A DNA stretch of 32,000 nt from Candidatus Pelagibacter sp. HTCC7211 (lineage in GTDB: Bacteria; Pseudomonadota; Alphaproteobacteria; Pelagibacterales; Pelagibacteraceae). Location: contig NZ_DS995298.1 of the NCBI RefSeq assembly GCF_000155895.1, forward strand, positions 1,290,001 to 1,322,000. The letters are read 5' to 3'. Shown in pieces: positions 5,567 through 29,213 of this stretch (position 1 is the first letter of the stretch; each line of letters begins with the position of its first letter). The notes under the pieces are model-generated. The model made no database searches and was not told the DNA's origin. It worked only from the letters and a program-made list of their open reading frames with translations. Made by a program: the position numbers and the translations under genes.

Positions 5567-5716
5567 CTTTAAATAGAAGTAATTTCCATATTCCCTAGAA
5601 CTTAAAATTGTGCTAAGATTTATATTGTAAAGAGCGATACATAACTCATCGTTATATCCAATACGAAAGTGGGATCGGTCGTCTTTTTTTAAATTAGAAA
5701 GTTTAAAGGAGGAAGC

Positions 5717-6886
5717 ATGAATTTTGGATACTTTTGCAATACTACTAACTGGACACACAAGCCTTACCACGAACTATTAGATGAAACTAGAGAAATTACA
5801 GAATATTGTGATCAAAATAAATGGGATTCTATTTGGTATACCGAACATCACTTTAATCACGAAGGAATGGAGTCTTGTACTAACCCTTTAATGATGGGTG
5901 TAGATGCGGCTGCAAGAACTAATCAAATTAGAATAGGCCAAGCCTGTAATGTAATTACGTTTCATAATCCCATACAAATGGCTGAGGATGTAGCTCTTTT
6001 AGATCAATTATCAAAAGGCAGAGTCGAAGTTGGCATTGGCCGGGGTATTTATGGTAGGGAAGCAGTTAATCTAAATATCGAAGCTGACATGAAAGATCAG
6101 GCTAAAAATTTTAGATTGTTTGAAGAAACTTTAACAATTTTAAAAAAAGCTTGGAAAGAAAAATTTTTTGATCACAAAGGTGAATTTTACACGTACCCAT
6201 CACCTGATTATGTGTGGCAACATGATATGAGTAAACCTAGTGAAGAATTTATGGATATGAAAACTAATGTAATGAAAAAGATTAGTGTTCTGCCTCAACC
6301 ATATCAAAAACCTTATCCACCAATTCATCAAGTTGTAGATGGCATTAGATCAATTGAATGGGCTGCGCAACAAGGATTAAATATTATTATGTGGATACCA
6401 ACAGTCAAAGCTTTAAAAATTAAATTTGAAGCATTTAAAAATGCAAAATCTGAAGCTGAAAAAAGAAACGTTCCAATGGGTGAAGGAATTTCATTAGTTA
6501 GAGATATGTTTGTTGCCGACACTATGGAAGAAGCAAAAGAAAAAGCTGGTGAACATATGGTAAATTATATGCGATGGGTATGTCACTGGAGAGGGCTTGG
6601 AAATCATATGGATCCAGGCGAAGAATTGCCTGAAACTAAAGGTAAATTAGATTTATTAAATTACGAATTTTTACATAAAAGAAACATGTTATTTGGTACA
6701 CCTGAATATGTTACAGACAAAATTCATGAGTTAAAATCTGAATTAAACTTACAGAATTTACAAGTTTGGTCCAATTTTCCTGGAGTAAAACATAAAGACT
6801 GCATGAAAAGCATAAAACTTTTTACTGAAAAAGTTATGCCTAACTTCAAAAATGATATTGATACTGAAATAAAAAAAGTTTCGTGA
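5717..6886 (+). CDS. LLM-class (luciferase-like) flavin-dependent monooxygenase/oxidoreductase
   Basis: 389 aa with typical LLM blocks (WDSIWYTEHHF, RIGQACNV, LDQLSKGRVEVGIGRG). A strong SD (AAGGAGGAAGC) lies directly upstream of the ATG. This is the first gene of a tightly coupled six-gene run. Confidence 0.85.
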   Translation: MNFGYFCNTTNWTHKPYHELLDETREITEYCDQNKWDSIWYTEHHFNHEGMESCTNPLMMGVDAAARTNQIRIGQACNVITFHNPIQMAEDVALLDQLSKGRVEVGIGRGIYGREAVNLNIEADMKDQAKNFRLFEETLTILKKAWKEKFFDHKGEFYTYPSPDYVWQHDMSKPSEEFMDMKTNVMKKISVLPQPYQKPYPPIHQVVDGIRSIEWAAQQGLNIIMWIPTVKALKIKFEAFKNAKSEAEKRNVPMGEGISLVRDMFVADTMEEAKEKAGEHMVNYMRWVCHWRGLGNHMDPGEELPETKGKLDLLNYEFLHKRNMLFGTPEYVTDKIHELKSELNLQNLQVWSNFPGVKHKDCMKSIKLFTEKVMPNFKNDIDTEIKKVS

Positions 6887-6900
6887 TCAAATCACGAAAC
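6878..6900 (+). promoter_or_regulatory. Perfect 10-bp stem / 3-nt loop hairpin spanning the LLM stop codon, just upstream of the ThDP-enzyme ATG
   Basis: GTTTCGTGAT-CAA-ATCACGAAAC. The arms are exact reverse complements. The TGA stop (6884-6886) and the candidate GTG start (6883) lie inside the 5' arm, and ATG 6904 follows 3 nt after the 3' arm. Confidence 0.5.
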
Positions 6901-8583
6901 AAAATGTCTGGTGGTCAAGCTGCCGTTAAGTCTTTAAAAAAAGAGAACGTTGAACATGTCTTTGGTCTCATTGGTTCTGCAACAATGGAAATGTTTGATG
7001 CTCTTTATCATGAAAAAAAGATAAAATTTATTGGTGTACGAGATGAGAGAACTGGCACTCACATGGCCGATGGTTATGCCAGAGCATCTAATAAACCGGG
7101 TGTTATTTTAGCTGGACAAAATGGCCCAGGAGCTACCAATTTGGTAACAGGAGTCGCTCAAGCAAAAGCTGCTTTCTCTCCAGTAGTTGCAATTGCAGGA
7201 TCATATTCAACTAAAGATAAAGTTGAAGATGCATTTCAAGGTCTTGATCAGCAATCTTTATTTAAACCCATTACAAAAAAAACTTGGACTGTAAAAAAAT
7301 CTAAAATTATTCCTCAAGTAATTAGTGATGCTTTTGGACTAGCAATGAAGCCTAGAAGAGGACCAGTTTGCATTAATTTACCTAGAAATATTTTAGCAGC
7401 AACAGAGAACTATAATATAAATGTAAAAAAACCTTCATTTGATAGCGAAAGTTACCTTAAAGGAAACAAAGAAAAAATTACAAGAGCAGCAAAGATAATA
7501 AGTCATGCAAAACAATTTGTGATAATTGCTGGTGGTGGGATTAAATATACTTCTAAATATTTAGAAGTGATTAAGCTTGCAGAATTATTAAATACGCCAA
7601 TAGTTACCGCTGCAGGTCATGGGGATGCCATACCATTTAACCATAAACTTAACGCAGGCCAAATGGGACCTCGTGGAAACCCTGTTGCATCACGGCTTGT
7701 GAAAGAAGCAGATGTTATTTTGGCGATTGGAACCAGGTTAGGTTTTAATTCTACTTTTTATAGCTACGATAATATCAATAAAAAAGCAAAAATTATTCAA
7801 ATTGAAATTGAAAAAAAAATGCTGGGCAAATATTTTCCTGTTGTTCTAGGTATCAATGCTGACGCAGCCACAGTCACTAATCAAATATATAATGAAATCA
7901 AAAAACAAAAAATTAAACTAGATATAAAAAATTGGACAAATGAATTTTTAAAACAAAGAAAAGATTATTTAACTGATAGAGAAACTAATAATCTAGGTAA
8001 AAATTTTCCTATTCAACCAAAAGGTTTGTTTAAACAATTAAGAAAAGCGTTACCAAAGGATACAGCTATTACTTTAGATGCAGGAACTTTATGTTTACAA
8101 GCAACAGATGCTCTCAAATATTATAATCCTCCTTCTTTATTCACACCTTTAGATTTTGGTTTGGTAGGTTTTTCGTTTGCCTGCGGTCTAGGAGTTAAGG
8201 TTGCAAAACCAAAAAAAACTGTTGTTAGTTTAATGGGCGATGGTGGATTTGGTATGACAATTTCTGAATTAAGCACAGCAGTAGAATATAGAATTAACAC
8301 AACAACCATAGTAATGAATAATCAAAGTTGGGGAGCAGAAAAAGCCTACCAAAAAGATTTTTTTGGGAAACGATACCTTGGTGCAGACATCCGTAGCCCT
8401 TCATTTGATAAAGTTGCAGAATTATATGGTGCAAAAGGCTTTAAAGTAAAAAAAATTTCTGAAATAAGTGAGGCAGTTAGAGCTGCAGTGAAATCAAATA
8501 AACCTGCAGTGGTTGATGTTGATGTTGACCCAAGTGCATTATATAGTTTTAGAAGAGATAGTTTTAAACATAGGCAAAAATAA
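6883..8583 (+). CDS. Thiamine-diphosphate-dependent enzyme (acetolactate-synthase-like / sulfoacetaldehyde-acetyltransferase-like superfamily)
   Basis: 566 aa with the three-domain ThDP layout. The PYR domain carries AGQNGPGATNLVTG and the ThDP/Mg motif is GDGGFGMTISELSTAVEYRINTTTIVMNNQSWGAEK. The track start is GTG 6883 (GTGA overlap), but ATG 6904 (MSGGQAAV...) is at least as likely. Confidence 0.85.
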   Translation: MIKSRNKMSGGQAAVKSLKKENVEHVFGLIGSATMEMFDALYHEKKIKFIGVRDERTGTHMADGYARASNKPGVILAGQNGPGATNLVTGVAQAKAAFSPVVAIAGSYSTKDKVEDAFQGLDQQSLFKPITKKTWTVKKSKIIPQVISDAFGLAMKPRRGPVCINLPRNILAATENYNINVKKPSFDSESYLKGNKEKITRAAKIISHAKQFVIIAGGGIKYTSKYLEVIKLAELLNTPIVTAAGHGDAIPFNHKLNAGQMGPRGNPVASRLVKEADVILAIGTRLGFNSTFYSYDNINKKAKIIQIEIEKKMLGKYFPVVLGINADAATVTNQIYNEIKKQKIKLDIKNWTNEFLKQRKDYLTDRETNNLGKNFPIQPKGLFKQLRKALPKDTAITLDAGTLCLQATDALKYYNPPSLFTPLDFGLVGFSFACGLGVKVAKPKKTVVSLMGDGGFGMTISELSTAVEYRINTTTIVMNNQSWGAEKAYQKDFFGKRYLGADIRSPSFDKVAELYGAKGFKVKKISEISEAVRAAVKSNKPAVVDVDVDPSALYSFRRDSFKHRQK

Positions 8584-9213
8584 ATGTCACAAAAAGATAT
8601 TGGTAATAAAATCCCAATTTATAAATTAAAGGCAGGTAAAGAAGTTGAGGATTACTATGACGAGTGGACAGTTGAAAATAAATACGACAAAGATATGGTT
8701 GATTGGAAATATTCTGGACCTCAAGAAACTGTTACCCTTTTTAAAAAACATAATTCAAAAAAAGAAATTAAAATTTTAGATGCGGGTTGTGGAACTGGCT
8801 TGGTAGGTGTTGAGCTAAAAAAGAATGGCTATCTAAACTTAGATGGTGCTGATTTTTCTCAAAAAATGCTAGATTTAGTTCCAAAAAATATTTATGAGAA
8901 TTTATTTAAAATTGATCTTAATCAAAAAGTAAATATTGCAGATGATACTTATGAAGGAATAACTTGTGTTGGAACTTTTACTTTTGGCCATGTAAATCCA
9001 CCAGCACTAGATGAAATGGTTAGAATCTGTAAAAATGAGTCTTTGATTTGTTTTACAATAAATTTAGGAATTTACGAAGAATATGGGTTTGACAAAAAGA
9101 TTAAAGAGTTAGAAGATAATAACTCTTGGAAAATAATTGAATTTATTAAATCAGATTATATTGCAAGCAAAGGAGTAAATGCCTGGCTAGTTTTGGCTCA
9201 GGTAACTAAATAA
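8584..9213 (+). CDS. Class I SAM-dependent methyltransferase
   Basis: 209 aa with motif I ILDAGCGTGLVG and an acidic post-I residue (LDGADFS). The ATG directly abuts the upstream TAA. Confidence 0.8.
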   Translation: MSQKDIGNKIPIYKLKAGKEVEDYYDEWTVENKYDKDMVDWKYSGPQETVTLFKKHNSKKEIKILDAGCGTGLVGVELKKNGYLNLDGADFSQKMLDLVPKNIYENLFKIDLNQKVNIADDTYEGITCVGTFTFGHVNPPALDEMVRICKNESLICFTINLGIYEEYGFDKKIKELEDNNSWKIIEFIKSDYIASKGVNAWLVLAQVTK

Positions 9214-9216
9214 AAA

Positions 9217-9804
9217 ATGGAAATTAATTTAAGAAAATTTACAAAATTTGTTGATAAAACTTTTATCGAAGGTGGTAAGGAAGCTAAAGAACCGGTCTTA
9301 TTAGTTTCAGTTGCAGCCGTTTTTAAAAATCCCTGGCATGGACAAGGTTTTGTTGAAAATTTAAGACCTACTATTTTAGACTTAGCTCCAAAGTTAGGTG
9401 ATTTATTGGTACCCGAGCTTATTAAAGAAATTGGATCTCCTGAAAAAATATTAGCTTATGGAAAAGCAGGTGTAGTAGGATTAAATGGAGAGATAGAACA
9501 TGCGTCTGCTTTTATTCATACATTAAGATTTGGTAATAAATTTAGGGATGCAGTTGGTGGGACTTCTTATTTAAGTTTTACAAATACTAGAAGTCCAGCT
9601 GGATCTAAAATTTCAATACCCATGATGCACAAAACAGACTCGGGTTTAAGACCTTATTATTTAACTCATGAATTTACTATTCATGATGCTCCATTTGATG
9701 ACGAAATAGTAATAGCTATAGGTGGTGCTTCAAGTGGAAGAGCTCATGCAAGAACTGGTGACAGATATCAAGATATGAAAGAAATGGGTATTGAACCCAA
9801 ATAA
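9217..9804 (+). CDS. 'Amino acid synthesis' family protein (PF06684/DUF1185), function unknown
   Basis: 195 aa. The blocks VAAVFKNPWHGQGFVENLRP, YGKAGVVGLNGEIEHASAFIHTLRFGN, YLSFTNTRS and IPMMHK match my recollection of this family's conserved blocks. Confidence 0.8.
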   Translation: MEINLRKFTKFVDKTFIEGGKEAKEPVLLVSVAAVFKNPWHGQGFVENLRPTILDLAPKLGDLLVPELIKEIGSPEKILAYGKAGVVGLNGEIEHASAFIHTLRFGNKFRDAVGGTSYLSFTNTRSPAGSKISIPMMHKTDSGLRPYYLTHEFTIHDAPFDDEIVIAIGGASSGRAHARTGDRYQDMKEMGIEPK

Positions 9805-9810
9805 TTCTAG

Positions 9811-10593
9811 ATGACAACAGGAACATCGGCATCTGGTACTTTTTATGTTTTAAATCAAAAAGAACAATCAATACCAATAGTCTTTATACATGGTGTTGGC
9901 CTTACTTATGAAATTTGGCAACCACAATTAGATTTTTTTACAAACTATAGTACTCTTGCATATGATATTTTGGGACATGGCAAATCTTCTTTAAAAAAAC
10001 AAAATATAAGTTTTGATGATTTTTCTGATCAACTAATCAAATTAATTGATGAGCTTAATTTTCAGAAAATTCATCTAGTTGGTTTTTCAATTGGCTCTTT
10101 AATTGCTAGAAATTTTGCAACTAAGTTTAATGATCGGTTACAATCATTGGTTCTTTTAGGTTCAATTTACAAAAGAACGGAGCAACAACAAAAAATAGTT
10201 AATCAAAGGTTTGAACAAGCAAAACAAGAATTAAAACTATCAAAACTAGCTCTTAAAAGATGGTTTACTGATAAATATCTAGAAAAAAATCCAGAAATTT
10301 ATGAAAAAATAAGTTCAATTTTGTCAGCTAATAACATGAACAATTTTTTAAAAGTTTATGAGCTATTTGTTAACCATAAAAATGATGAGGATTTTAATAA
10401 AATTACAGCTAGTACACTGGTTATGACGGGTGAATATGATATTGGCTCAACAGTAAAAATGTCTCAAGAATTAAATATTTTAATCTCTAAAAGTCAATTA
10501 AAGATCATTAAAGATGGAAAACATCTTTGTGGTATTGAGTGTGCTGATGATGTAAATTTAGCAATCAAAAATTTTATTAGATCTAATGACTAA
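9811..10593 (+). CDS. Alpha/beta-fold hydrolase
   Basis: 260 aa with the oxyanion region IVFIHGVG, the nucleophile elbow GFSIGS (G-x-S-x-G) and a C-terminal GKHLCGIE His region. Its 3' end overlaps the next gene by 8 nt. Confidence 0.85.
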   Translation: MTTGTSASGTFYVLNQKEQSIPIVFIHGVGLTYEIWQPQLDFFTNYSTLAYDILGHGKSSLKKQNISFDDFSDQLIKLIDELNFQKIHLVGFSIGSLIARNFATKFNDRLQSLVLLGSIYKRTEQQQKIVNQRFEQAKQELKLSKLALKRWFTDKYLEKNPEIYEKISSILSANNMNNFLKVYELFVNHKNDEDFNKITASTLVMTGEYDIGSTVKMSQELNILISKSQLKIIKDGKHLCGIECADDVNLAIKNFIRSND

Positions 10594-12067
10594 ACTAAAA
10601 CAATATAAAATGTTTATTAATGGTGAATGGGTTGATTCTGAAAGTAAAAAAACATTTGAAACTCTTAATCCAGAACACAATGAACCTTGGGCAATTGTAC
10701 CAGAAGCAAGTTCTAAAGATGTTGATAATGCAGTCAAAGCTGCTCAAAAAGCATTCGAGGGTGAATGGCCTAAGTTACTTCCAAGAGAAAGAGCTAAATT
10801 TTTAAGAGCTATTGGAAATCAACTTAGGGAAAATGCAGAAATGCTAGGTGAAATAGAAACAATTGACACTGGTAAACTATATAGAGAAACAAAAAAACAA
10901 GCAGTTTATATTGCAGAATACTACGATTACTACGCTGGCTTAGCAGACAAAGTCGAAGGAACAGTTTTGCCAATAGATAAACCAAATGTTCAAGCAATTA
11001 CAACAAGAATACCTATAGGAGTTATAGCTGCAATAATTCCTTGGAATTCACAAATGTTTTTAACTGCAACTAAATTAGCGCCAGCACTTGCGATGGGAAA
11101 TACAGTTGTAATTAAATCCTCAGAACTTGCTCCTGCTGTCCTATTTGAATTTGCAAAATTAATTGAAAAAACTGGTATCCCTAAAGGAGTAGTGAATGTA
11201 ATTACAGGATTTGGTGATCCTTGTGGTAAAAGTTTAACTACTCACAACTTAGTTGAAAAAGTTGCATTCACCGGAGGTCCTGAAACAGCAAGACATATAA
11301 TTAGAAACTCTGCAGAAAATTTATCAGAAGTAAGTTTGGAACTAGGTGGAAAAAGTCCAGTTGCAGTATTTGATGATGCAGAACAAGAAAATGCAATAAA
11401 TGGAATTACAGCTGGAATATTTGGTGCAAGTGGACAGAGCTGTATAGCAGGCTCAAGACTTTATTTACAAAAAGGAATTTATGATGAATTCTTAGATAAA
11501 CTTTCAAAACGAGCGTCAAAAATAAAAATCGGAGCACCAATGGATCCAGAGACAGAGATGGGCCCTTTAAGTAATTTTAAACAACTAGAGGTAATAGAAA
11601 AAAATATTAAAGATACAATTAATCAAGGTGGAAAAATTAAATGTGGTGGTGAAAGACATTCTTTTTCTAACAAAGGATATTACTTTCCTCCAACAATTAT
11701 AGAATGTGATAATCACAATCTGCCTGTAGCAGAAAACGAGTTATTTGGACCTGTATTATCAGTAATGAAATTTGATACAGAAGAAGAAGTAATTTCAAAA
11801 ATGAACGATAATCAATATGGATTATCCTCTGGGGTTTACACAAACAATTTATCCAAAGGAATGAGAGTCTCAAAAGCTATTAGGGCAGGAATAACTTTCG
11901 TTAACACCTATAGATTAATTTCACCATCTGCCCCTTTTGGAGGTATCAAGGATAGTGGTTATGGAAAAGAGGCAGGAATTGAGTCTATTAAAGATTACAC
12001 CAGAGTTAAAACTACTTGGTTTTATACGTCAGATGAGCCTTCTCTGGATCCTTTCTCAATAAGATAA
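10586..12067 (+). CDS. NAD(P)+-dependent aldehyde dehydrogenase
   Basis: 493 aa with the catalytic Glu motif LELGGKSP, catalytic Cys GQSCIAGSR, the cofactor region FTGGPETA, and EELFGPV. Confidence 0.92.
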   Translation: MTKLKQYKMFINGEWVDSESKKTFETLNPEHNEPWAIVPEASSKDVDNAVKAAQKAFEGEWPKLLPRERAKFLRAIGNQLRENAEMLGEIETIDTGKLYRETKKQAVYIAEYYDYYAGLADKVEGTVLPIDKPNVQAITTRIPIGVIAAIIPWNSQMFLTATKLAPALAMGNTVVIKSSELAPAVLFEFAKLIEKTGIPKGVVNVITGFGDPCGKSLTTHNLVEKVAFTGGPETARHIIRNSAENLSEVSLELGGKSPVAVFDDAEQENAINGITAGIFGASGQSCIAGSRLYLQKGIYDEFLDKLSKRASKIKIGAPMDPETEMGPLSNFKQLEVIEKNIKDTINQGGKIKCGGERHSFSNKGYYFPPTIIECDNHNLPVAENELFGPVLSVMKFDTEEEVISKMNDNQYGLSSGVYTNNLSKGMRVSKAIRAGITFVNTYRLISPSAPFGGIKDSGYGKEAGIESIKDYTRVKTTWFYTSDEPSLDPFSIR

Positions 12068-12174
12068 TCAGCATTAATTAACCTGTTTAAATTAGGATAA
12101 TTTTGTCATTGAATATTGGTTTTATTCATACTTAAATTGGTTTTTATAAATTGTTAACAATAAAGAGGAAGATA

Positions 12175-13365
12175 ATGAGAAAACTATTTATCGCCGTATT
12201 TATGTTTGTATCAAGCTTTGGTTCAAATGTAATGGCAGACGGACATTCGATTAAAATGGGGATTATTTTAGGATTTACGGGTCCTATTGAATCTCTAACT
12301 CCTGCTATGGCTGCATCTGCAGAGCTTGCTTTTAAAGAGGCCTCTGATTCAGGTTCGCTATTAGGTGGAAAAAAAATTGAGCCAGTAAGAGCAGACTCAA
12401 CTTGTGTAGACTCAGCGGCAGCAACTTCAGCAGCTGAAGGACTAATTTCAGGTGGTGTAGCTGCAATTATGGGGGCAGATTGTTCAGGTGTAACTGGTGC
12501 AATAGCATCAAATGTTGCTGTACCAAATGGTGTAGTGATGATTTCACCATCAGCAACTTCTCCAGGTTTAACAACTTTAGATGATAATGGGTATTTCTTT
12601 AGAACTGCACCATCAGATGCTAGAGGTGGTCAAATCTTAGCTGATATAACAAAAGACAGAAAAGTTAAAAGTGTAGCAATAACTTACACAAATAATGACT
12701 ATGGAAAAGGTTTAGCTGATGTATATGAAGCAGCAGTTAAAGCTCACGGTATTAAAGTTACAACAGTAACTGCTCACGAAGATGGAAAAGCTGATTATTC
12801 ATCTGAGGTAGCAACACTTGCTTCAGCAGGTGGTGATGCAGTAGCAGTAATTGGTTACCTTGATCAAGGAGGAAAAGGAATTATTCAAGCCTCTTTAGAC
12901 TCAGGTGCATTTGATAGATTTATTTTATCAGATGGAATGATCGGTCAATCTTTGGTTGATGCATTTGGAAAAGATTTAAGCAAATCTTTTGGTTCTATGC
13001 CTGGTTCAACTGGAAAAGGTGCTGGTGTGTTTGCTGAAGTAGCTAAAGCTGGTGGAATAGATTCATCTGGTCCTTACACTGGAGAATCATATGATGCTGC
13101 TGCTTTAATAGTTTTAGCGATGCAAGCTGGTAATTCAGCAGATAGAGCATCTATTGCAAAAAATGTAATGGATGTTGCTAATGAGCCTGGAACTAAAATT
13201 TATCCAGGTCAACTAAAAAAAGGTTTAGACTTACTTGCCAAAGGTAAAAAGATTAACTACGAGGGAGCAACTGGTGTTACATTTACTAGTGTTGGTGAAG
13301 CCGAAGGTTCTTTCTTAGAGCAAGAAGTAAAAGGTGGAAAGTTTAAAACTAAAAAACAAAGATAA
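12175..13365 (+). CDS. ABC-transporter substrate-binding protein, Leu/Ile/Val-binding (LivK/Peripla_BP_6) family; orphan
   Basis: The track ORF starts at TTG 12151, but ATG 12175 preceded by AAAGAGGAAG is the likelier start. A signal peptide MRKLFIAVFMFVSSFGSNVMA is followed by a type-I PBP fold (GADCSGVT, ISPSATSP, FFRTAPSD, NDYGKG). The protein is Ala/Gly-rich and visibly higher in GC than its neighbours. Confidence 0.9.
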   Translation: MRKLFIAVFMFVSSFGSNVMADGHSIKMGIILGFTGPIESLTPAMAASAELAFKEASDSGSLLGGKKIEPVRADSTCVDSAAATSAAEGLISGGVAAIMGADCSGVTGAIASNVAVPNGVVMISPSATSPGLTTLDDNGYFFRTAPSDARGGQILADITKDRKVKSVAITYTNNDYGKGLADVYEAAVKAHGIKVTTVTAHEDGKADYSSEVATLASAGGDAVAVIGYLDQGGKGIIQASLDSGAFDRFILSDGMIGQSLVDAFGKDLSKSFGSMPGSTGKGAGVFAEVAKAGGIDSSGPYTGESYDAAALIVLAMQAGNSADRASIAKNVMDVANEPGTKIYPGQLKKGLDLLAKGKKINYEGATGVTFTSVGEAEGSFLEQEVKGGKFKTKKQR

Positions 13366-13378
13366 TTAATATCAAATT

Positions 13379-13415
13379 AAAAACCCCGGTAATTGTAAAT
13401 TGCTGGGGTTTTTTT
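13379..13415. terminator. Bidirectional rho-independent terminator between convergent genes
   Basis: AAAAA-CCCCGGTAATT-gta-AATTGCTGGGG-TTTTTTT. The stem is 11 bp (two G-U pairs). It is followed by a T7 run on the + strand and preceded by an A5 run that reads as a T-run on the - strand. It lies 14 nt after the SBP stop and 5 nt from the TauE stop. Confidence 0.85.
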
Positions 13416-13419
13416 ATGT

Positions 13420-13983
13420 TTAAATACTTCCTGTAATTCTTAAAATACCAAAAATTGATATTATTATTAAAAAATTAAACACTACTTTTCTATAAAGAGC
13501 TTCTTTGCTTTTAACAAAAAATTTATCTCCAATATAAACTCCAATTGGTAAAATTATTATCAATGGAAGAGTTCTATAAATTGTTATCATATCTACAATC
13601 CCTCCCAAAAAGCTTAAAACAAAAGCATATACATCTGTTAAAAAAAATAGTGCTGCTAAAGACCCTCTAATTACGGCTGGTTGTATACTGGTAACCAATA
13701 AAAATAGTGCAACAGGCATTCCACCTAATGTTGTTAATCCATTTAAGGTTCCAGAAATTATTCCTGTAAAAATTTTTGAGCCATCATTATTAATTTTTTG
13801 ATTTGAGTAGCCTTTCATTAATAATAAAGAAAAAAATATAATTATTACACATACATACAAATGAGTTGTTTGTGGTGATAAGTATTTTAATAAATATAAT
13901 CCAATTGGTGAACCAATTGTAATCCCTATCAATAGTTTAAAAAAAAAGTTCCAGTCTATTTTGTTCCAAATATAAGGTGCCAT
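13420..13983 (-). CDS. TauE/SafE (DUF81) sulfite-exporter-family permease, C-terminal ~3/4 as an intact ORF
   Basis: 187-aa hydrophobic ORF with TauE-like helices (GTLNGLTTLGGMPVALFLL). It is short for the family. Homologous coding sequence continues upstream (see next feature). Confidence 0.75.
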   Translation of the reverse strand: MAPYIWNKIDWNFFFKLLIGITIGSPIGLYLLKYLSPQTTHLYVCVIIIFFSLLLMKGYSNQKINNDGSKIFTGIISGTLNGLTTLGGMPVALFLLVTSIQPAVIRGSLAALFFLTDVYAFVLSFLGGIVDMITIYRTLPLIIILPIGVYIGDKFFVKSKEALYRKVVFNFLIIISIFGILRITGSI

Positions 13984-15419: not shown

Positions 15420-16790
15420 TTATTTTATTTCTATTTTTTCAGGAAGTATACCTTTTGGTCGATACCTCATAATTAATAATAATCCAAGGCCCATCATTAA
15501 GAATCTAAAGTAAGGCACGCTTTCAATTAAATGAGCTTTAAGAGCGTTTGTTTCTGAAATACCTGCTGTAAAAAAATTAATTAAGAATAATGCAATTGGA
15601 GCAGCTTCAATCCATAAGAACCAAACTACAAAACCTCCTAAAATAGCACCAAAATTGTTCCCGCTTCCACCAACAATTACCATTACCCATATAAGAAATG
15701 TATATCTCATAGGTCTATAACTTCCAGGAGTAAACAAGCCATCCTGAGTAACTAACATCGCGCCAGCAATTCCAACTATTGCAGATCCTAAAATAAAAAT
15801 TAATAAATGTTGTTTAACTACATTTTTTCCCATAGCGTTTGCTGCTTCCTCATTATCTCTTATTGCTCTCATCATTCTTCCCCAAGGAGAATAAAGTGCT
15901 TTCTGAGTTAAAATTAAAAGAATTATAACCACTGTTAAGAATAAACCTGAGTAACATAATTTTACAAATACTGATGAGCCTTCGATAACAAGCTGATTTA
16001 ATGCTGATTGCCGATCTGATAAATTGGAAATTATTTCTAATTTTCCAGAATTAAATTTTTCAACTAAATTTATAAACCAATCTGTCGTTTGTAGATTAAC
16101 TTCATATGGAGCCGGCCTTTTTAAACCAATTACATTTTTAACGCCTCTTGTAAGCCAATCTTCGTGTTTAATTATAGCGATTACAATTTCTGAAATAAGA
16201 AGTGTAGCAATTGCCAAGTAATCAGCTCTAAGACCCAACGCTACTTTCCCAACAATAAAAGCTAATCCTCCAGCAAAGAATGCTCCAACAATCCAAGAAA
16301 ATAAAATAGGTAATCCAAATCCACCTAAAAAACCTGTTTTAGCAGGATCAACAGCTTCAATAGCTTCAATGCCTGGTTCTGCAGAAAATCTAATAAGCAA
16401 TATACCCGAAATTATTATTGCCGCGATGCTATAAGTTCTCACTTTAGATTTTTCAAATCTTTTTAAAATAAATCTGACAACTAAGACCATAACTACTATT
16501 AGCCATAAGCTCATTAAAATATCAAAACCACCAGCGCTCCATGCCTCTTGTACAGGATCGACAGATATTAATACTGCTGCAAGACCGCCTAATGCTGTAT
16601 ATCCCATAATTCCAAAGTTAATTAGTCCTGCATAACCCCATTGAATATTAGCTCCCATTGTCATTACTGCAGAAATTAAGCAAAGATTAAAAATAGATAA
16701 TGCAATATTCCAAGATTGAAATAATCCCACTAAGATAATTAAGCCCATCATAATACTGTAAGCCGCAATTACGTTTAAATTTTTTCTCAC
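15420..16790 (-). CDS. HAAT-family ABC transporter permease (LivM-like, long form)
   Basis: 456 aa, multi-TM, with the conserved RAIRDNEEAANAMG block. There is a ~70-aa hydrophilic insertion (HEDWLTRGVKNV...SALNQLVIEG). The GTG start overlaps the upstream stop (GTGA). Confidence 0.88.
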   Translation of the reverse strand: MRKNLNVIAAYSIMMGLIILVGLFQSWNIALSIFNLCLISAVMTMGANIQWGYAGLINFGIMGYTALGGLAAVLISVDPVQEAWSAGGFDILMSLWLIVVMVLVVRFILKRFEKSKVRTYSIAAIIISGILLIRFSAEPGIEAIEAVDPAKTGFLGGFGLPILFSWIVGAFFAGGLAFIVGKVALGLRADYLAIATLLISEIVIAIIKHEDWLTRGVKNVIGLKRPAPYEVNLQTTDWFINLVEKFNSGKLEIISNLSDRQSALNQLVIEGSSVFVKLCYSGLFLTVVIILLILTQKALYSPWGRMMRAIRDNEEAANAMGKNVVKQHLLIFILGSAIVGIAGAMLVTQDGLFTPGSYRPMRYTFLIWVMVIVGGSGNNFGAILGGFVVWFLWIEAAPIALFLINFFTAGISETNALKAHLIESVPYFRFLMMGLGLLLIMRYRPKGILPEKIEIK

Positions 16791-17797
16791 AATACTTTCC
16801 CTTTAAATATTCCAGAGGGTCTATAGAGTAGAACAATAACAAGTATCGAAAATGATACTGCAAACTTATAGTCTGTTGATAAAAGTTGAACTAAACTTTC
16901 AGGCTCCATACTCTCTGGCAACATATACATAAAAAATTTTTTGTAAGCGTAAGTTAAAAATATTTCTGAAAAAGCAATAACATATCCTCCCAAAAATGCT
17001 CCAAAAGGGTTTCCAATACCTCCAACGATTGCAGCAGCAAAAATAGGAAGCATATTGTTAAAGTATGTAAATGGTTTAAAACTTTTATCTAAACCATATA
17101 AAGCACCACCAATAGTTGCTAAAATTCCAGCAATTATCCACGTAATCATAACAATTTTCTTTGGATCTATGCCTGAAAGAAGTGCCAAATCTTCATTATC
17201 AGAATATGCCTTCATGCTTTTTCCTGTCTTCGTTTTGTTTAAAAACCAAAATAACAAAGAAACTAATACTATTGTAACAAATATTGTTAGCACTTGAGTT
17301 GATTTTAATGCAAGACCTTCGTTTAAACCTGTCATCTCTTTAAACTCACGTGCTTTAATAATAAATTTTTCTCCATCAAAAAATCTTCTATCTGATGGAC
17401 CAATAATAATTCTTACAACTGCTTGAGTGACAAACATAACCCCAATACTTACCATTGCCAGTTGAACAGGTGGACTTTTGTTTGTTCGATAATATTTAAA
17501 CACAAATTTATCAATACTGAACATGTATAAAATCATGAAAATAATCGCAAAAGGAATGGCTAATAGTGCTGTAGGTAGAATACCAAGTGAAATTCCTAAA
17601 GATTGGAAATACCATGTAAACAAAATAGTAATCATTGTACCAAATGACATCATGTCTCCAGTAGCAAAATTAGCAAATCTTAAGATACCATAAATTAATG
17701 TTACAAAAATTGCACCAAGGGCTAATTGAGATCCATAGGTTAGGGCTGGAATAAAAATATAATTAAGTAAAAGTATTATTGCGTTTAATATATCCAT
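16787..17797 (-). CDS. HAAT-family ABC transporter permease (LivH-like, long form)
   Basis: 336 aa with the blocks FANFATGDMMSFG and KAYSDNEDLALLSGI, plus an insertion (PSDRRFFDGEKFIIKAREFKEMTG). Confidence 0.88.
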   Translation of the reverse strand: MDILNAIILLLNYIFIPALTYGSQLALGAIFVTLIYGILRFANFATGDMMSFGTMITILFTWYFQSLGISLGILPTALLAIPFAIIFMILYMFSIDKFVFKYYRTNKSPPVQLAMVSIGVMFVTQAVVRIIIGPSDRRFFDGEKFIIKAREFKEMTGLNEGLALKSTQVLTIFVTIVLVSLLFWFLNKTKTGKSMKAYSDNEDLALLSGIDPKKIVMITWIIAGILATIGGALYGLDKSFKPFTYFNNMLPIFAAAIVGGIGNPFGAFLGGYVIAFSEIFLTYAYKKFFMYMLPESMEPESLVQLLSTDYKFAVSFSILVIVLLYRPSGIFKGKVL

Positions 17798-17798
17798 A

Positions 17799-18506
17799 CT
17801 ACCCGCCTAAGAATGAGCTTCTAACTCTTGGATCGTTTAATAATTCATTTCCTGTTCCTGAATATCGATTTTCTCCAGTTACTAAAACATAACCTCTATC
17901 AGAAATATTTAATGCTTGTTTTGCATTTTGCTCAACCATTAAGATTGCAACATTGGTTCTTTTTACTTTAATAATATGGTCAAACAATTCATCCATTACT
18001 ATTGGGGAAACACCTGCCGTAGGTTCATCTAACATTAAAACAGTTGGTTTAATCATTAAAGCTCTTCCAAGAGCAACTTGTTGTCTCTGACCACCTGACA
18101 ATTCTCCAACAAACTGATTTCTTTTTTCTTTTAAAACCGGAAATAGCTCATAAATTTCCTCAATAATATTTTTTACGTCATCATTAACTAGGAATGCACC
18201 CATTTCTAAATTTTCTTCAACTGTCATACCAGCAAATACATTTTTTGTTTGAGGAACGAATGAAATACCCTCTTTAACTCTATCTTGTGGAGATAATTTT
18301 GAAATATCTTTTCCGTCAATTTTTACTGATCCAGATTTTAAATTAAGTAAACCAAGCATAGCTTTCATAGCTGTAGATTTTCCAGCTCCATTTGGACCTA
18401 GTATAGAAACTATTTCACCTTTATTTACGTCTACTGAACATGAATTAATGATATCAGGTCCATTTCCATAACCACCTGTCATTTCAATTCCTTCAAAATA
18501 TGCCAT
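17799..18506 (-). CDS. ABC transporter ATP-binding protein (LivF-like)
   Basis: 235 aa with Walker A GPNGAGKST, signature LSGGQRQ, and Walker B LMLDEP. Confidence 0.92.
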   Translation of the reverse strand: MAYFEGIEMTGGYGNGPDIINSCSVDVNKGEIVSILGPNGAGKSTAMKAMLGLLNLKSGSVKIDGKDISKLSPQDRVKEGISFVPQTKNVFAGMTVEENLEMGAFLVNDDVKNIIEEIYELFPVLKEKRNQFVGELSGGQRQQVALGRALMIKPTVLMLDEPTAGVSPIVMDELFDHIIKVKRTNVAILMVEQNAKQALNISDRGYVLVTGENRYSGTGNELLNDPRVRSSFLGG

Positions 18507-19294
18507 TACTTTGTATCCTTAAGTTTGGAGCCTCTTCCAAGATAACTTTCAATTACCTTTTCATCCTTTTTTGCTTCTTCAACTGATCCTTCAAATAAAA
18601 CTGATCCTTCAGCCATTACTATTACTGGATCACACAATCTACCAATAAAATCCATATCATGCTCAATCATACAAAAAGTATAGCCCTTCTCCCTATTTAG
18701 CTTTTCAATCGCAGTACCAAGATCTTTTAATAAAGTTCTATTTACTCCAGCACCAACCTCATCAAGTAGCACAAGTTTTGCATCTACCATCATCGTTCTT
18801 CCAAGTTCTAACAATTTTTTCTGTCCGCCAGATAGATTTCCAGCTAATTCATTTGATAAATGTCCTAAATTCAAAAAATTGACTACTTCTTTTGCTTTGT
18901 CTTTAATCACAGCTTCTTCTTGAGCTACCAGGCCAGGTTTAAACAATGCTGTCATTATTTTTTCTCCTGATTGATTTCCAGGAACCATCATCAGATTTTC
19001 TAAAACAGATAAATTGGTAAATTCGTGAGCAATTTGAAAAGTTCTTAAAAGTCCTTTTGAAAATAATTCATATGATGGAACATCAGTTATATTTTCTTCG
19101 TCAAAAGTAACATATCCATTTGAAGATTTTAAATTTCCAGCAATTAAATTAAATAATGTCGTCTTACCTGATCCGTTAGGTCCAATTATTCCTGTAATAC
19201 TTCCTCGTTTAACATTTAAAGAACAATCAGATACAGCAGCAATACCTCCAAAATATTTCGACAAATTACTAATCTCTAAAATATTTTCAGACAT
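18506..19294 (-). CDS. ABC transporter ATP-binding protein (LivG-like)
   Basis: 262 aa with Walker A GPNGSGKTT, signature LSGGQKK, Walker B VLLDEV, and a LivG-type C-terminal extension. Confidence 0.92.
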   Translation of the reverse strand: MSENILEISNLSKYFGGIAAVSDCSLNVKRGSITGIIGPNGSGKTTLFNLIAGNLKSSNGYVTFDEENITDVPSYELFSKGLLRTFQIAHEFTNLSVLENLMMVPGNQSGEKIMTALFKPGLVAQEEAVIKDKAKEVVNFLNLGHLSNELAGNLSGGQKKLLELGRTMMVDAKLVLLDEVGAGVNRTLLKDLGTAIEKLNREKGYTFCMIEHDMDFIGRLCDPVIVMAEGSVLFEGSVEEAKKDEKVIESYLGRGSKLKDTK

Positions 19295-19299
19295 CTAAT

Positions 19300-20067
19300 T
19301 TATTTATTTAATCTTCGATGAATACTGTCTAAAGTTTTTTCAAGGGATTTATAAAAACCTGCTTTAGTTAATTCCTTCACACCTTGTTCATTCAATCCTT
19401 TTGGCGTTTGAGAATCTTTAACTAAATTTTTTAAGTTTTTTTTTGAATTTACCACAGCATCTTCAGATAATGCTAAAAACAGAGAGGTAATATATTTTTG
19501 AGCATTACTTCTTTTTACTCCTCTTTTTACTAGCCAATCAGTCATAACTCTCAACACCTCATAAAAAGGTGCCATCATTCCAGAAGTTGACCAAAAATTT
19601 ATTGAAGATTTTTCATTTTTAATTTCGACTGTTGTTCCAAGCTTATTAAAAAATGCTTTTACTTTTGGATTAGGAGGGCAAATAGGTACCGGACCTTTCT
19701 TTAATGCAATTGGAGGAAGAGGTATTGCTCTAACAATTGATACTTTTTTGTTAATTGCTTTTTTTAATTGAGACAAAGTTATAGTTGAAATAAAGCTAAC
19801 AACAGTTTGTTTGGATTTAAATTTTAAATCTTTTATAATTTTTTCACCAACAATTGGTGTAACAGATAAAAATACCCAATTAGACTGATCTACAATTTGT
19901 TGGTTATCTTTAGCGATAACTATTTTTTTAAACTTTCTTTTTAAACCTTGTGCTATTTTTTTATTTCTTAGTGAAATAATTATTTTTTTGAAAGAAATAT
20001 TTGATTTACATATTCCAGTAATCACTGAAGCAGCAATTTTTCCTGTACCAATAAAACCTAAAATCAT
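19300..20067 (-). CDS. Pyrroline-5-carboxylate-reductase-family (ProC-like) NAD(P)H oxidoreductase, divergent
   Basis: 255 aa with an N-terminal dinucleotide-binding motif ILGFIGTGKIA, followed by a P5CR-type dimerisation region. The usual SPGGTT motif is degenerate here (TPKGLNEQ). Confidence 0.65.
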   Translation of the reverse strand: MILGFIGTGKIAASVITGICKSNISFKKIIISLRNKKIAQGLKRKFKKIVIAKDNQQIVDQSNWVFLSVTPIVGEKIIKDLKFKSKQTVVSFISTITLSQLKKAINKKVSIVRAIPLPPIALKKGPVPICPPNPKVKAFFNKLGTTVEIKNEKSSINFWSTSGMMAPFYEVLRVMTDWLVKRGVKRSNAQKYITSLFLALSEDAVVNSKKNLKNLVKDSQTPKGLNEQGVKELTKAGFYKSLEKTLDSIHRRLNK

Positions 20068-20099
20068 AATTTTGGTTACTTTATATTGATTATATTGAA

Positions 20100-21011
20100 T
20101 TAATTAACAAAAAAAGAACCTCTAATTCTTAGTAATTCTCTACTTAATTCCTTATTTTCTTTGAAAGGTTTTCTACCATGAAGCCAGAAATAATTATTTG
20201 CGATCACAGAGTAACCAACAGGTAATTTTGTAATTATTTTATTTTTACTCTCCTCTAATCCATCAGATAATCTCTGCAAAAAATTTCCTTGTTCCATATT
20301 TTGTGGTTCAGGAAATTGATCTATGTATGAAATTGTTGGTCTTCCCTCTCCATCTGACGAAAAAACTGGGTGTTCAACTTTATAATCAATATTTTTACTT
20401 TTTGGTGATCCCCAAACAAACTTTTGTTTTCCTATGGGATCATTATATAAATCGAAACAATGTTCCCAGTCATCAAGGTGTAACATTGCAGTCTCTCCAC
20501 CTTCTACATTTTGTTCATCAATTTTAGTCATAATTAACCAATCAGTAACATCTTTGACATATGTTCCATCTGTGTGAAGATCCATATTTCTATAAGCTTT
20601 TCTCAAATATGAGTCGCTAGTATCTTCATGTTTTACGTGAAAACGAGCGTAATATTTTCCAGTCATGGCATCATGATTTGGCACACCTATAAGATGAGCG
20701 ATTGCAGTTGACAACTTAACTAAAAATGTATCATTAATTTTTGTAGTTATGTTTTTTGGTCCTATGATAAAACAACCTGTCGATCTATCTCTAATGATTG
20801 AATTCATCAAATCACTTAATTTATTGTTTGTTAAATCATCTAAACTTTTAGCTAAAGTAAATCTTGTAAATGGTTTGAGTTCTAATGCTGTTAAATCAAA
20901 TTTATTAAAAGGAAAAATTAATTTATCTATAATATCATTTTCTAAACTAATCTTAACGATCCTATTTGAATGATCATGCTCTTGAATATCTATACCCGTA
21001 ATTTTTTGCAT
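20100..21011 (-). CDS. csiD: CsiD-like Fe(II)/2-oxoglutarate dioxygenase (glutarate 2-hydroxylase family)
   Basis: 303 aa. Long colinear matches to E. coli CsiD as I recall it: LSTAIAHLIGVPNHDAMTGKYYARF, DSYLR, MDLHTDGTYV (H-x-D), IMTKIDEQNVEGGE, LHLDDWEH, YIDQF, and FWLHGR (distal His). Physiological substrate is unverified. Confidence 0.75.
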   Translation of the reverse strand: MQKITGIDIQEHDHSNRIVKISLENDIIDKLIFPFNKFDLTALELKPFTRFTLAKSLDDLTNNKLSDLMNSIIRDRSTGCFIIGPKNITTKINDTFLVKLSTAIAHLIGVPNHDAMTGKYYARFHVKHEDTSDSYLRKAYRNMDLHTDGTYVKDVTDWLIMTKIDEQNVEGGETAMLHLDDWEHCFDLYNDPIGKQKFVWGSPKSKNIDYKVEHPVFSSDGEGRPTISYIDQFPEPQNMEQGNFLQRLSDGLEESKNKIITKLPVGYSVIANNYFWLHGRKPFKENKELSRELLRIRGSFFVN

Positions 21012-26924: not shown

Positions 26925-27539
26925 TTAATATTGTTGAATTACAGCAATAATAATTGCAATGATAATTAAAACACTCGCAGAAATTGTATTAATTACTTTT
27001 GGATTTGCTTTTATCCAAACAATTAATTTTCTAGCAAGCATAGCATAAGCAACTAAAGATAAAAAATCTAAAACTACATAAGTTGTGATTAAAATAAAGA
27101 ATTGAACAACATAATTTGAATTAAAATCAATAAACTGTGGAAAAATTAATGGAAAAAACATCCAAGCCTTAGGACTTGTGCCTGCAACTAAAAAACCATC
27201 TCTAAAAAAAGAAAAAAAACTTTTTGATGAAATATTATTTGAACTTATATCTTTTGGTTTTGAGTTATAAAGATCATAAGCAAGATATAATAAATAAATT
27301 ATTCCTATCCATTTAAAAATATTTAAAAAATTTGGATTATCTAAAAAAAATGAGCCAATGACAAAGATGACAAGAGTTGCCTGAATAAAGTTTGCACTTA
27401 TATCTCCTAATGCAGTCCAAATACATTTTTGAACACCATAATTCATAGAATAAGAAATTATGACAATTCTTGGTGTACCTGGTGTAATAAATAAAAATAA
27501 GATTATTTGTAAAAATAGAAAATAGTTTATGGGGAACAT
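26925..27539 (-). CDS. LysE/RhtB-family amino-acid exporter
   Basis: 204 aa with about 6 helices. The N-terminal motif FITPGTPRI corresponds to the family's PGP(N) block. Confidence 0.8.
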   Translation of the reverse strand: MFPINYFLFLQIILFLFITPGTPRIVIISYSMNYGVQKCIWTALGDISANFIQATLVIFVIGSFFLDNPNFLNIFKWIGIIYLLYLAYDLYNSKPKDISSNNISSKSFFSFFRDGFLVAGTSPKAWMFFPLIFPQFIDFNSNYVVQFFILITTYVVLDFLSLVAYAMLARKLIVWIKANPKVINTISASVLIIIAIIIAVIQQY

Positions 27540-27553
27540 TTTAAGTATGCGTG

Positions 27554-27600
27554 GATAGTCCTTAAAAACCGGGAGCTAAAGATGGCTAAGAAGGACTATC
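27554..27600. promoter_or_regulatory. GC-rich structured element (10-bp perfect stem enclosing 27 nt) in the LysE/DUF2805 divergent spacer; class unknown
   Basis: GATAGTCCTT (27554-27563) and AAGGACTATC (27591-27600) are exact reverse complements. The interior AAAAACCGGGAGCTAAAGATGGCTAAG can form a second small stem (AGCT/GGCT). The element stands out against otherwise A/T-only spacer DNA. Confidence 0.4.
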
Positions 27601-27663
27601 AAATACATAATATCACTCTCTAAAAAAAATGCATTAAACATTTTTTTCAAATATAAAGGATTT

Positions 27664-28241: not shown

Positions 28242-29213
28242 CTACCTAGCAATTAAATCAAAATCGAAATAAGCACTATCAAAATATCCAATCATATTTG
28301 TAGTGCTAGTCATACTTTTTGTTATACCTCTGGTATTATTGTATTTGATTTGAAGACCAGTAGTTTGAGGGGTAATTTTCATTGTTGTTGCAAGTGGCAT
28401 TACACCAATTATTCTTGCAATATCGTGATCTGCACCGCCAGTACAACCTGCTATACCATTTTTAATTTGGTCTGTGTCTGTAGCTCCAACTCCATCAAGA
28501 AGTGTCAAATCTGACTCTACTAAATAAGCATCGATATTAACACTCGTACCTTGAAAAGTTACTGCATGATAGCAATCATCATCACTATCCATTGTTAATG
28601 TATTAACTCCAATTGTTGTCTCGGCAGCAGTTGCGCCTGAAGTACAGTCTACATTTGATTTTGCAGCAGTATTAATTCTGTTTTCAAAACCGTATATTGT
28701 TCCAAGAGATGATACTTTTGTTACACAAGTTGTCGAAGTATTTGATCTGTCACTCATCGTAGCATCAAAAAGTTGGCTTGTCGTGAATTTAAATGTAGAA
28801 CCCATAGTGACAATTGCGAAAGTATAATTTCCATAAGGTAAAGCAGTATAATCTGCAGCAGTTCCTATTTGAGTACCTGTTCCTTTTACAACTGTTGTCT
28901 CAGACCCACTATCATTCTTGAAAAATGTAGAACAATTAGTTCTTACTACTTGTGCAGATGTTGTTGGACCAGTTGGTCGAGAAGTACATAGATCTAATCT
29001 ATAAAAAGTTATCTTTTGAGCATCAGGAGTAAATTCACATCTATTGTTTGCAGCAGCAGGAGTTATAGTTCCTCCATTACCGTTGCATTCTGGATCATTT
29101 CTACTTACCGTAGTTCCAGGCTGTGCATTTGTAGCTGTTGAATAGAATGTTATACTAATCAAACTTAAAAATAATATTATAAAAAATATTCTAATATTTA
29201 AATCAGCTTTCAT
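28242..29213 (-). CDS. Secreted Thr/Gly/Ser-rich, 8-Cys protein of unknown family
   Basis: 323 aa. It has a Sec-type signal peptide (MKADLNIR-IFFIILFLSLISITFY-STATNA|QPG). The mature part is poor in Lys/Ile relative to the rest of the window, beta-strand-like, and has 8 Cys. It starts 3 nt after the barrel gene stop. Confidence 0.6.
   Translation of the reverse strand: MKADLNIRIFFIILFLSLISITFYSTATNAQPGTTVSRNDPECNGNGGTITPAAANNRCEFTPDAQKITFYRLDLCTSRPTGPTTSAQVVRTNCSTFFKNDSGSETTVVKGTGTQIGTAADYTALPYGNYTFAIVTMGSTFKFTTSQLFDATMSDRSNTSTTCVTKVSSLGTIYGFENRINTAAKSNVDCTSGATAAETTIGVNTLTMDSDDDCYHAVTFQGTSVNIDAYLVESDLTLLDGVGATDTDQIKNGIAGCTGGADHDIARIIGVMPLATTMKITPQTTGLQIKYNNTRGITKSMTSTTNMIGYFDSAYFDFDLIAR

Follow-up and report, generated by a model that had tools for sequence, protein, structure and literature searches.

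The question raised by the locus described here is which compound it serves to degrade, and which of its genes belong to that route. It lies in Candidatus Pelagibacter sp. HTCC7211, a member of SAR11, the most abundant heterotroph of the surface ocean, in which very few genes have been retained. The window (the whole stretch of 32,000 nt that was analyzed) carries on its plus strand, at 5717-12067, six head-to-tail open reading frames (ORFs), which a sequence-only reading had taken for a tightly coupled operon of a luciferase-like flavin-dependent monooxygenase (LLM), a thiamine diphosphate (ThDP)-dependent enzyme, a class I S-adenosylmethionine methyltransferase, a PF06684 protein, an alpha/beta-fold hydrolase and an aldehyde dehydrogenase (ALDH). 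The operon proved to be genuine, tightly packed and syntenically conserved around a core of four genes, and this core appears, from protein comparisons, to be a divergent relative of the trigonelline (tgn) cluster.

The conserved core and its relation to the trigonelline module

The LLM gene (5717-6886, 389 aa, WP_008544375.1) is followed by the genes of the ThDP enzyme (6883-8583, 566 aa from a GTG or 559 aa from the ATG at 6904, WP_008545204.1), the METTL27-like methyltransferase (8584-9213, 209 aa), the PF06684 protein (DUF1185 or AA_synth, "amino acid synthesis", of the TgnF clade; 9217-9804, 195 aa), the alpha/beta hydrolase (9811-10593, 260 aa) and the NAD(P)-dependent ALDH of TgnC type (10586-12067, 493 aa). 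The successive junctions were confirmed to measure -4 (GTGA), 0 (TAAATG), 3, 6 and -8 nt. The first of them becomes a gap of +17 nt if ATG 6904, the ThDP start in most public gene calls, is used, and the palindrome GTTTCGTGATCAAATCACGAAAC (6878-6900) then falls inside it; this palindrome spans the LLM stop codon, marks the left edge of the ThDP insertion and was scored as a minus-strand hairpin. The spacer of 150 nt upstream of the LLM gene, the longest between plus-strand genes, and its strong Shine-Dalgarno sequence (SD; AAAGGAGG) were likewise as had been described.

The six family assignments were borne out by Pfam, namely PF00296 for the LLM (144.9 bits), PF02776/PF00205/PF02775 for the ThDP enzyme, the class I methyltransferases, PF06684 (212 bits over the full length, the gathering score being 27), the alpha/beta hydrolases and PF00171 for the ALDH. 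The PF06684 protein scored only 72-91 bits against crystallised members of its family, and the best solved ALDH structure scored 401 bits with the ALDH. The hydrolase is the fastest-evolving member of the operon (43-87% identity among SAR11 genomes). The earlier statement that no textbook pathway matches this gene set was right in so far as none of the six proteins reached the curated threshold of a named NCBIfam equivalog, and as the literature yielded nothing relevant on SAR11 or HTCC7211 together with the genes of the operon; it was wrong in that the set resembles the published tgn cluster.

The distribution of the operon was determined by scanning species-representative genomes with a PF06684 alignment, from which 80 loci were obtained, all in Pelagibacterales. 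The core gene order recurred in these 80 species-level SAR11 genomes and in many metagenome contigs, so that the arrangement is far beyond a chance juxtaposition. Architectures were counted at the 69 loci that cover the interval from LLM to PF06684. The two genes were directly adjacent, 3-7 nt apart, in 24 genomes (LLM-PF06684-hydrolase-ALDH), the ThDP gene alone stood between them in 35, and the architecture of the window, with both the ThDP and the methyltransferase gene, was found in eight. In the remaining two, the ThDP gene was followed by an unrelated gene for a secreted protein of 346 aa in the slot of the methyltransferase. The ThDP gene was present in 45/69 genomes and the methyltransferase gene in 8/69; the same variants were displayed by metagenome contigs. 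Hence, the conserved unit consists of four genes (LLM, PF06684, hydrolase and ALDH), and the proposal of a six-gene unit had to be reduced to them. This core is widespread despite the small genomes of its hosts, occurring in at least 80 species-level genomes and in 90%-identity clusters with thousands of metagenomic members.

The LLM oxygenase, alpha/beta hydrolase, ALDH and PF06684 families are also united in one operon beside a transporter gene in the tgn trigonelline cluster of Acinetobacter baylyi ADP1 (TgnA-F, TgnP and TgnR), which was reportedly described by Perchat and colleagues in PNAS in 2018. Two related clusters were used for comparison, one from Chimaeribacter (L002, where L numbers designate loci), with a GntR regulator and the order PF06684-alpha/beta hydrolase-flavin reductase-LLM-ALDH-permease, and one from Ruegeria (L220), with a GntR regulator and the order PF06684-hydrolase-flavin reductase-LLM-ALDH-BCCT-ALDH. 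The SAR11 PF06684 protein was 53-58% identical (216-236 bits) to the proteins at the TgnF position, which share 64.5% among themselves. The SAR11 ALDH was 49-51% identical (504-517 bits) to those at the TgnC position, taken as the ALDH that follows TgnB in both clusters (66% among themselves), and 33% identical to the TgnE position. Both of these similarities are of orthologue grade. Additionally, a member of the 90% cluster of the SAR11 ALDH is named MFMB dehydrogenase (TgnC) by JGI, and a relative 70% identical to the LLM of the module carries the JGI name of trigonelline monooxygenase oxygenase component. On these comparisons the locus shares the architecture of the tgn cluster and two putatively orthologous members, and is a previously undescribed variant of the tgn type of catabolic module, found in an organism that is in culture and abundant worldwide.

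The operon had also been offered as a context from which a function could be assigned to PF06684. This was overtaken, since TgnF of the tgn cluster is a PF06684 protein, so that the family had a studied member beforehand as well as a genomic context that recurs. A passage of a paper on coumarin degradation relates that TgnF stimulates the TgnE-dependent oxidation of succinic semialdehyde in the trigonelline pathway of A. baylyi ADP1, and in published accounts the ring of trigonelline is opened by TgnA/TgnB, TgnB being an LLM. The pairing of PF06684 with the ALDH would narrow the likely role of the former. Furthermore, plasmid pMESCI01 of Mesorhizobium ciceri (L001, 188582-196184) carries a divergent tgn-like module, in which genes for a flavin reductase, ALDH, LLM, alpha/beta hydrolase and a protein of the carboxymuconolactone decarboxylase family are accompanied by a divergently oriented PF06684 gene; the LLM of this module is 39% identical to TgnB-type LLMs, and this variant suggests a set of related modules for different substrates. 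The comparisons as a whole suggest that tgn-type modules may form a family with a conserved pair of PF06684 and TgnC-type ALDH and with exchangeable oxygenases and hydrolases.

Several differences from the tgn cluster concern layout. The gene order is B-(ThDP)-(methyltransferase)-F-D-C in SAR11 and F-D-A-B-C in tgn, the BCCT/NCS1 permease of tgn is replaced by a LIV-type ABC binding protein, and a conserved RNA-like leader stands where tgn has a protein regulator. Other results speak against a trigonelline-like function. The SAR11 LLM is not an orthologue of TgnB, to which it is 24-27% identical, the TgnB orthologues of different classes (Ruegeria against Chimaeribacter) sharing 70%; even its matches on plasmids, which lie in unrelated contexts (LLM, lactonase and RibB), are closer, at no more than about 30%. 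The hydrolase resembles the proteins at the TgnD position (23-30%, compared with 46% among themselves) at the level of the fold only, although it adjoins PF06684 in both systems. No TgnA-like flavin reductase was hit by tblastn with two module reductases, either in the window or within 10 kb in 93 SAR11 loci (lengths up to 20 kb), and neither TgnE, a GntR regulator nor a BCCT or NCS1 transporter was found in the neighbourhood of the window, where the operon has a single ALDH gene. The ThDP enzyme is an addition of SAR11 with no counterpart in tgn. The labels "TgnC position" and "TgnF position" rest on synteny, secondary citations and automatic names, the comparison having been made with the Chimaeribacter and Ruegeria proteins, and no experimental report that ties SAR11 or HTCC7211 to trigonelline was found in the literature. 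The plasmid matches of the LLM were also discarded as guides to its function on account of their low identity and unrelated contexts.

Two other systems were compared. In the pyrimidine pathway of Escherichia coli (RutA-G), an LLM monooxygenase opens an N-heterocycle, and the alpha/beta hydrolase RutD and the small helper RutC act afterwards. The RutA and RutD hidden Markov models (HMMs) scored 21 and 70 bits on the SAR11 proteins, against cut-offs of 498 and 238; RutB, RutE and RutF have no counterpart in the operon, and PF06684 is not the RutC family. The homarine operon homABCDER, which is present in SAR11 too, provides for the catabolism of an N-methylpyridinium carboxylate by an oxygenase pair likened to TgnAB and an ALDH-like enzyme (PMC13236597). 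It was rejected as the identity of this locus: the families differ (FAD-binding HomA, HomB and a peptidase-like HomC), and LLM, PF06684 and alpha/beta hydrolase are absent from hom.

Weighing these points, we put the probability at about one half that the operon encodes an oxidative route similar to tgn, by which a small N-heterocycle or betaine is degraded. From the family memberships we infer the following order of reactions. The substrate, a betaine or small nitrogenous ring compound (trigonelline or a relative of it), would be imported, probably by the LIV-type binding protein encoded downstream together with a convergently encoded ABC transporter. The LLM would oxygenate the substrate or open its ring with reduced flavin supplied by a reductase encoded elsewhere, and the aldehyde produced in this step would be oxidised by the TgnC-type ALDH. 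The alpha/beta hydrolase, helped by the TgnF-like PF06684 protein, would then cleave the product to small acids and amines, which feed into central metabolism. An add-on in about two-thirds of the lineages, the ThDP enzyme would probably contribute an extra C-C cleavage or a decarboxylation, and the methyltransferase is most likely a passenger. If its substrate were identified, a further defined route would be known by which SAR11 consumes dissolved organic nitrogen and carbon. HTCC7211 is in culture, and variants with four, five and six genes occur naturally among isolates (HTCC8051, HIMB and nBUS strains), which makes the proposal directly testable.

The accessory genes and the competing pathways

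The ThDP enzyme has three ThDP domains and aligned over its full length with the superfamily of acetolactate synthase (ALS) and Xsc. It scored 403.7 and 419.5 bits with the Xsc models TIGR03457 and NF005713, whose cut-offs are 676.4 and 620, and 397 bits with the ALS model TIGR00118, whose cut-off is 538; annotated, true Xsc proteins were about 31% identical to it. No gene for an ALS small subunit (ACT domain) was found next to it, and a genuine ilvB-ilvH pair sits elsewhere, in L007. Its best hit in the PDB was BbmA, with 233 bits. The protein is a member of the ALS/Xsc superfamily and lacks close relatives that have been characterised.

The closest homologue of the ThDP enzyme outside SAR11 (40% identity) is encoded by the last gene of an operon on the megaplasmid of R. 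pomeroyi DSS-3 (L016, 339974-349294), among whose other products are an MttB-family methyltransferase, a class III aminotransferase and two FAD oxidoreductases of about 800 aa. In this operon a methylated amine seems to be demethylated and deaminated step by step, with the ThDP-dependent reaction last; nothing on the function of its SPOA genes was found in the literature. The context hints at a role of such an enzyme in terminal C-C cleavage during amine catabolism, which is no proof for the SAR11 protein. A homology search with the PF06684 and ThDP proteins gave no outside relatives among the matches listed, which were dominated by SAR11 variants, and the representative search for PF06684 yielded mainly fragments. 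As regards the methyltransferase, it resembles human METTL27, and its plasmid homologues (about 31%) stand in uninformative contexts.

It was also considered that the operon could be a mosaic, in which unrelated passengers have entered permissive junctions of the four-gene core, so that the ThDP enzyme and the methyltransferase serve other substrates and merely borrow the promoter. The three architectures point in this direction, as do the location in a hot spot of island insertion, the different kind of operon in which the nearest outside relative of the ThDP enzyme is found, and the unrelated 346-aa gene. The latter encodes a protein with a signal peptide and no Pfam match (L027:4232-5314 and L039:8918-10000), and its position shows that the ThDP-PF06684 junction accepts passenger genes. 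Against this, 35/69 species genomes have kept the ThDP gene with a 3-nt junction, at 74-98% conservation, which points to selection within this operon. For the operon as a whole a mosaic seems rather unlikely. For the methyltransferase alone the same explanation is the probable one, because the gene is rare and its slot is occupied elsewhere by an unrelated gene.

A second alternative, raised by the sequence-only reading, is a lactone route, in which the LLM would act as a type II Baeyer-Villiger monooxygenase on a cyclic or acyclic ketone, the hydrolase would open the resulting lactone or ester, the ThDP enzyme would cleave a 1,2-dicarbonyl or acyloin and the ALDH would oxidise a semialdehyde. 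The nearest characterised relatives and solved structures of the LLM are indeed luciferase alpha, RslO/MsnO8-type enzymes and 3,6-diketocamphane 1,6-monooxygenase, the best matches of the hydrolase are 3-oxoadipate enol-lactonases and esterases, and cyclohexane-1,2-dione hydrolase and benzaldehyde lyase are among the superfamily matches of the ThDP enzyme. All of these matches are distant, however, and lie under the family cut-offs. The lactone route also leaves the orthologue-grade link of PF06684 and ALDH to tgn unexplained and gives a part to an enzyme missing from 35% of the operons, and we regard it as doubtful.

The third alternative, likewise raised by the sequence-only reading, is an organosulfonate route in which an SsuD-like LLM would desulfonate an alkanesulfonate, an Xsc-like enzyme would act on sulfoacetaldehyde and a TauE-family protein would export sulfite. 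It is very improbable. In its favour, the Xsc models rank first among the NCBIfam matches of the ThDP enzyme, and the window and several relatives have a TauE/SafE-family gene close by. However, the Xsc scores remain far below their cut-offs and hardly exceed that of the ALS model, the SsuD and SfnG models reached 31 and 48 bits against cut-offs of 518 and 383, and 24/69 operons lack the ThDP enzyme. The TauE gene lies on the strand opposite to the operon, is missing from L007 and is a short ORF in the window.

The leader of the operon

The spacer upstream of the LLM gene contains a conserved leader on the plus strand (5630-5690), with the layout AAGAGCGAU-ACAUAACUC-variable hairpin-CGAAAGUGGGAU-CGGUCGUCUUU, which is a candidate cis-regulatory RNA and an attachment site. 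Its consensus reads AAGCGAU-ACAUAACUC-RUCG, a variable segment of 10-36 nt, CGAAAGYGGGAU-CRRUCGUCUUU and then a tail that contains the SD. The leader preceded the LLM start in every SAR11 copy of the operon (L020-L099 and L100-L219), whatever the architecture and the upstream gene; the pattern occurred once per SAR11 operon locus, always on the coding strand, and was absent from the non-SAR11 tgn loci. In 39 distinct leader sequences the blocks ACAUAACUC, CG, CGAAAG and GGGAU were invariant, separated by 14-40 nt of variable sequence.

The folding of the leader was analyzed at two levels. In the MAFFT alignment the proposed hairpin was 86.5% paired, compared with 30-43% in slid controls, its pairs switched between UA, AU and GC at several positions, and the observed covariation was reached by none of 500 shuffles. 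The leader of the window had a minimum free energy of -19.6 kcal/mol (z -2.37), and in the folding prediction a hairpin at 5680-5712 pairs its U-rich tract (5683-5696) with the SD region (GGAGG, 5708-5712). The pairing probability of the SD core was 0.80 versus 0.66 in controls, and it exceeded the controls in 29 of the 31 distinct platform variants. A firm assignment as RNA is opposed by a weak RNAalifold consensus, by an isolated leader hairpin no more stable than its shuffles and by an ill-defined closing helix. The helix P1a (CGAU:AUCG) has many broken pairs; an alternative helix with the anti-SD tract was judged by eye only. In Rfam 15, no relevant covariance-model match was obtained for the leader at E up to 10, and the integrase-type copies were unmatched too. 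These predictions are consistent with a candidate cis-regulatory RNA that is not matched by Rfam and that, by sequestering the SD, would probably control expression at translation initiation.

Other origins of the motif were discarded. A tRNA or tmRNA origin was ruled out by search, an rRNA or other known RNA by the absence of an Rfam match, and simple models of the leader as a partial duplicate of a longer RNA gene by the order of the copies in L148 and L213. Separately, a long form of the variable segment (37-40 nt; L068, L083, L084, L091 and many metagenome copies) was observed to have GGUUUAAANGGUAC as its conserved centre, with short direct repeats (UACU...) on either side that change in concert from one leader variant to the next.

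The leader motif was not confined to the operon. A metagenome scan returned at least 120 contigs with the motif, and of the 95 copies that could be evaluated, 71 stood before an LLM gene and 24 before other DNA. Most of these 24 were followed by a pyrimidine-rich segment, then by a tyrosine-recombinase gene or its remnants and then by genes of TPR proteins. Two copies bracket a complete glycerol-uptake (glp) block immediately upstream of the LLM gene in L148, three copies stand in tandem in L213, the last of them followed by the SD and the LLM gene, and in L215 (6056-7638) the motif has replication-type genes on one side and an integrase on the other. The motif was also found beside recombinase genes or remnants, or flanking inserted blocks, in L190:211-2043, L151 and L163. 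Since the motif flanks inserted blocks and adjoins tyrosine recombinases, the leader serves genomic islands of SAR11 as an attachment site, with the attL-island-attR pattern on the chromosome and with elements that carry their own copy. No tRNA or tmRNA was found at the integration site, and the motif was absent from IMG/VR viral contigs.

This role of the leader accounts for the differences among genomes in the genes just upstream of the LLM, which are a DUF218 gene in the window, FecR-like genes in L008-L010 and none in L003, L007 and L011. A possible regulatory RNA that doubles as a non-tRNA integration hot spot would explain the local hypervariability. It is conceivable, and no more than a tentative combination of the above, that the leader (about 60-90 nt, 5630-5712) is a riboswitch-like RNA that senses a substrate or product of the pathway and frees the SD; that SAR11 integrative elements adopted it as their attachment site because it is so conserved, as others use tRNA genes, and carry a functional copy that restores it once they have inserted; and that the operon degrades an abundant marine N-heterocycle by a tgn-like route with a non-orthologous oxygenase and a ThDP enzyme.

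Transport genes and flanking features

The gene of a LIV-type periplasmic binding protein (Peripla_BP_6; 12151-13365, plus strand, likely start ATG 12175) comes next after the ALDH gene, both in the window and in most SAR11 loci. No terminator was found between the two genes in the window, and the only strong terminator-like hairpin, of 16 pairs and a T run, lies at 13379-13413 on the plus strand and closes the unit, so that the transcription unit probably includes the binding-protein gene. Two LIV-type ABC permeases and two ATPases that lack a binding-protein gene of their own are encoded convergently on the minus strand (15420-19294), an arrangement also present in L003, L007 and L010, and are candidate partners of this binding protein. 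They form part of a larger minus-strand unit (15420-21011) that, besides the two permeases and two ATPases, encodes a CsiD-like 2-oxoglutarate dioxygenase (456 bits) and a protein similar to pyrroline-5-carboxylate reductase. The orphan binding protein may serve this unit and so link two catabolic units.

Genes for the use of osmolytes and quaternary amines occur near the operon, including GBBH-like, BKACE and GMC oxidoreductase genes, which favours the tgn-like reading. Upstream of the operon in L003:379-5388 and L011:127-2156, GBBH-like/TauD dioxygenases, BKACE, 4HBT thioesterases, an arginase-family protein and a class II aldolase are encoded; this neighbourhood abounds in genes for the catabolism of carnitine, betaine and osmolytes.

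Among the remaining features of the window, the TauE/SafE-family ORF (13420-13983, minus strand) encodes 187 aa that match profile positions 59-235, while its relatives in L003, L008 and L010 have 252-253 aa; it may be truncated or carry a mis-called start. An ORF of 323 aa (28242-29213, minus strand) gave no Pfam match at E <= 1e-5. Finally, a copy of the rhtB small RNA (RF01814, 88 bits), a known SAR11 RNA motif consistent with the Pelagibacter source, was detected at 27536-27618 on the minus strand, directly upstream of a gene for a LysE/RhtB-family exporter (26925-27539, minus strand).

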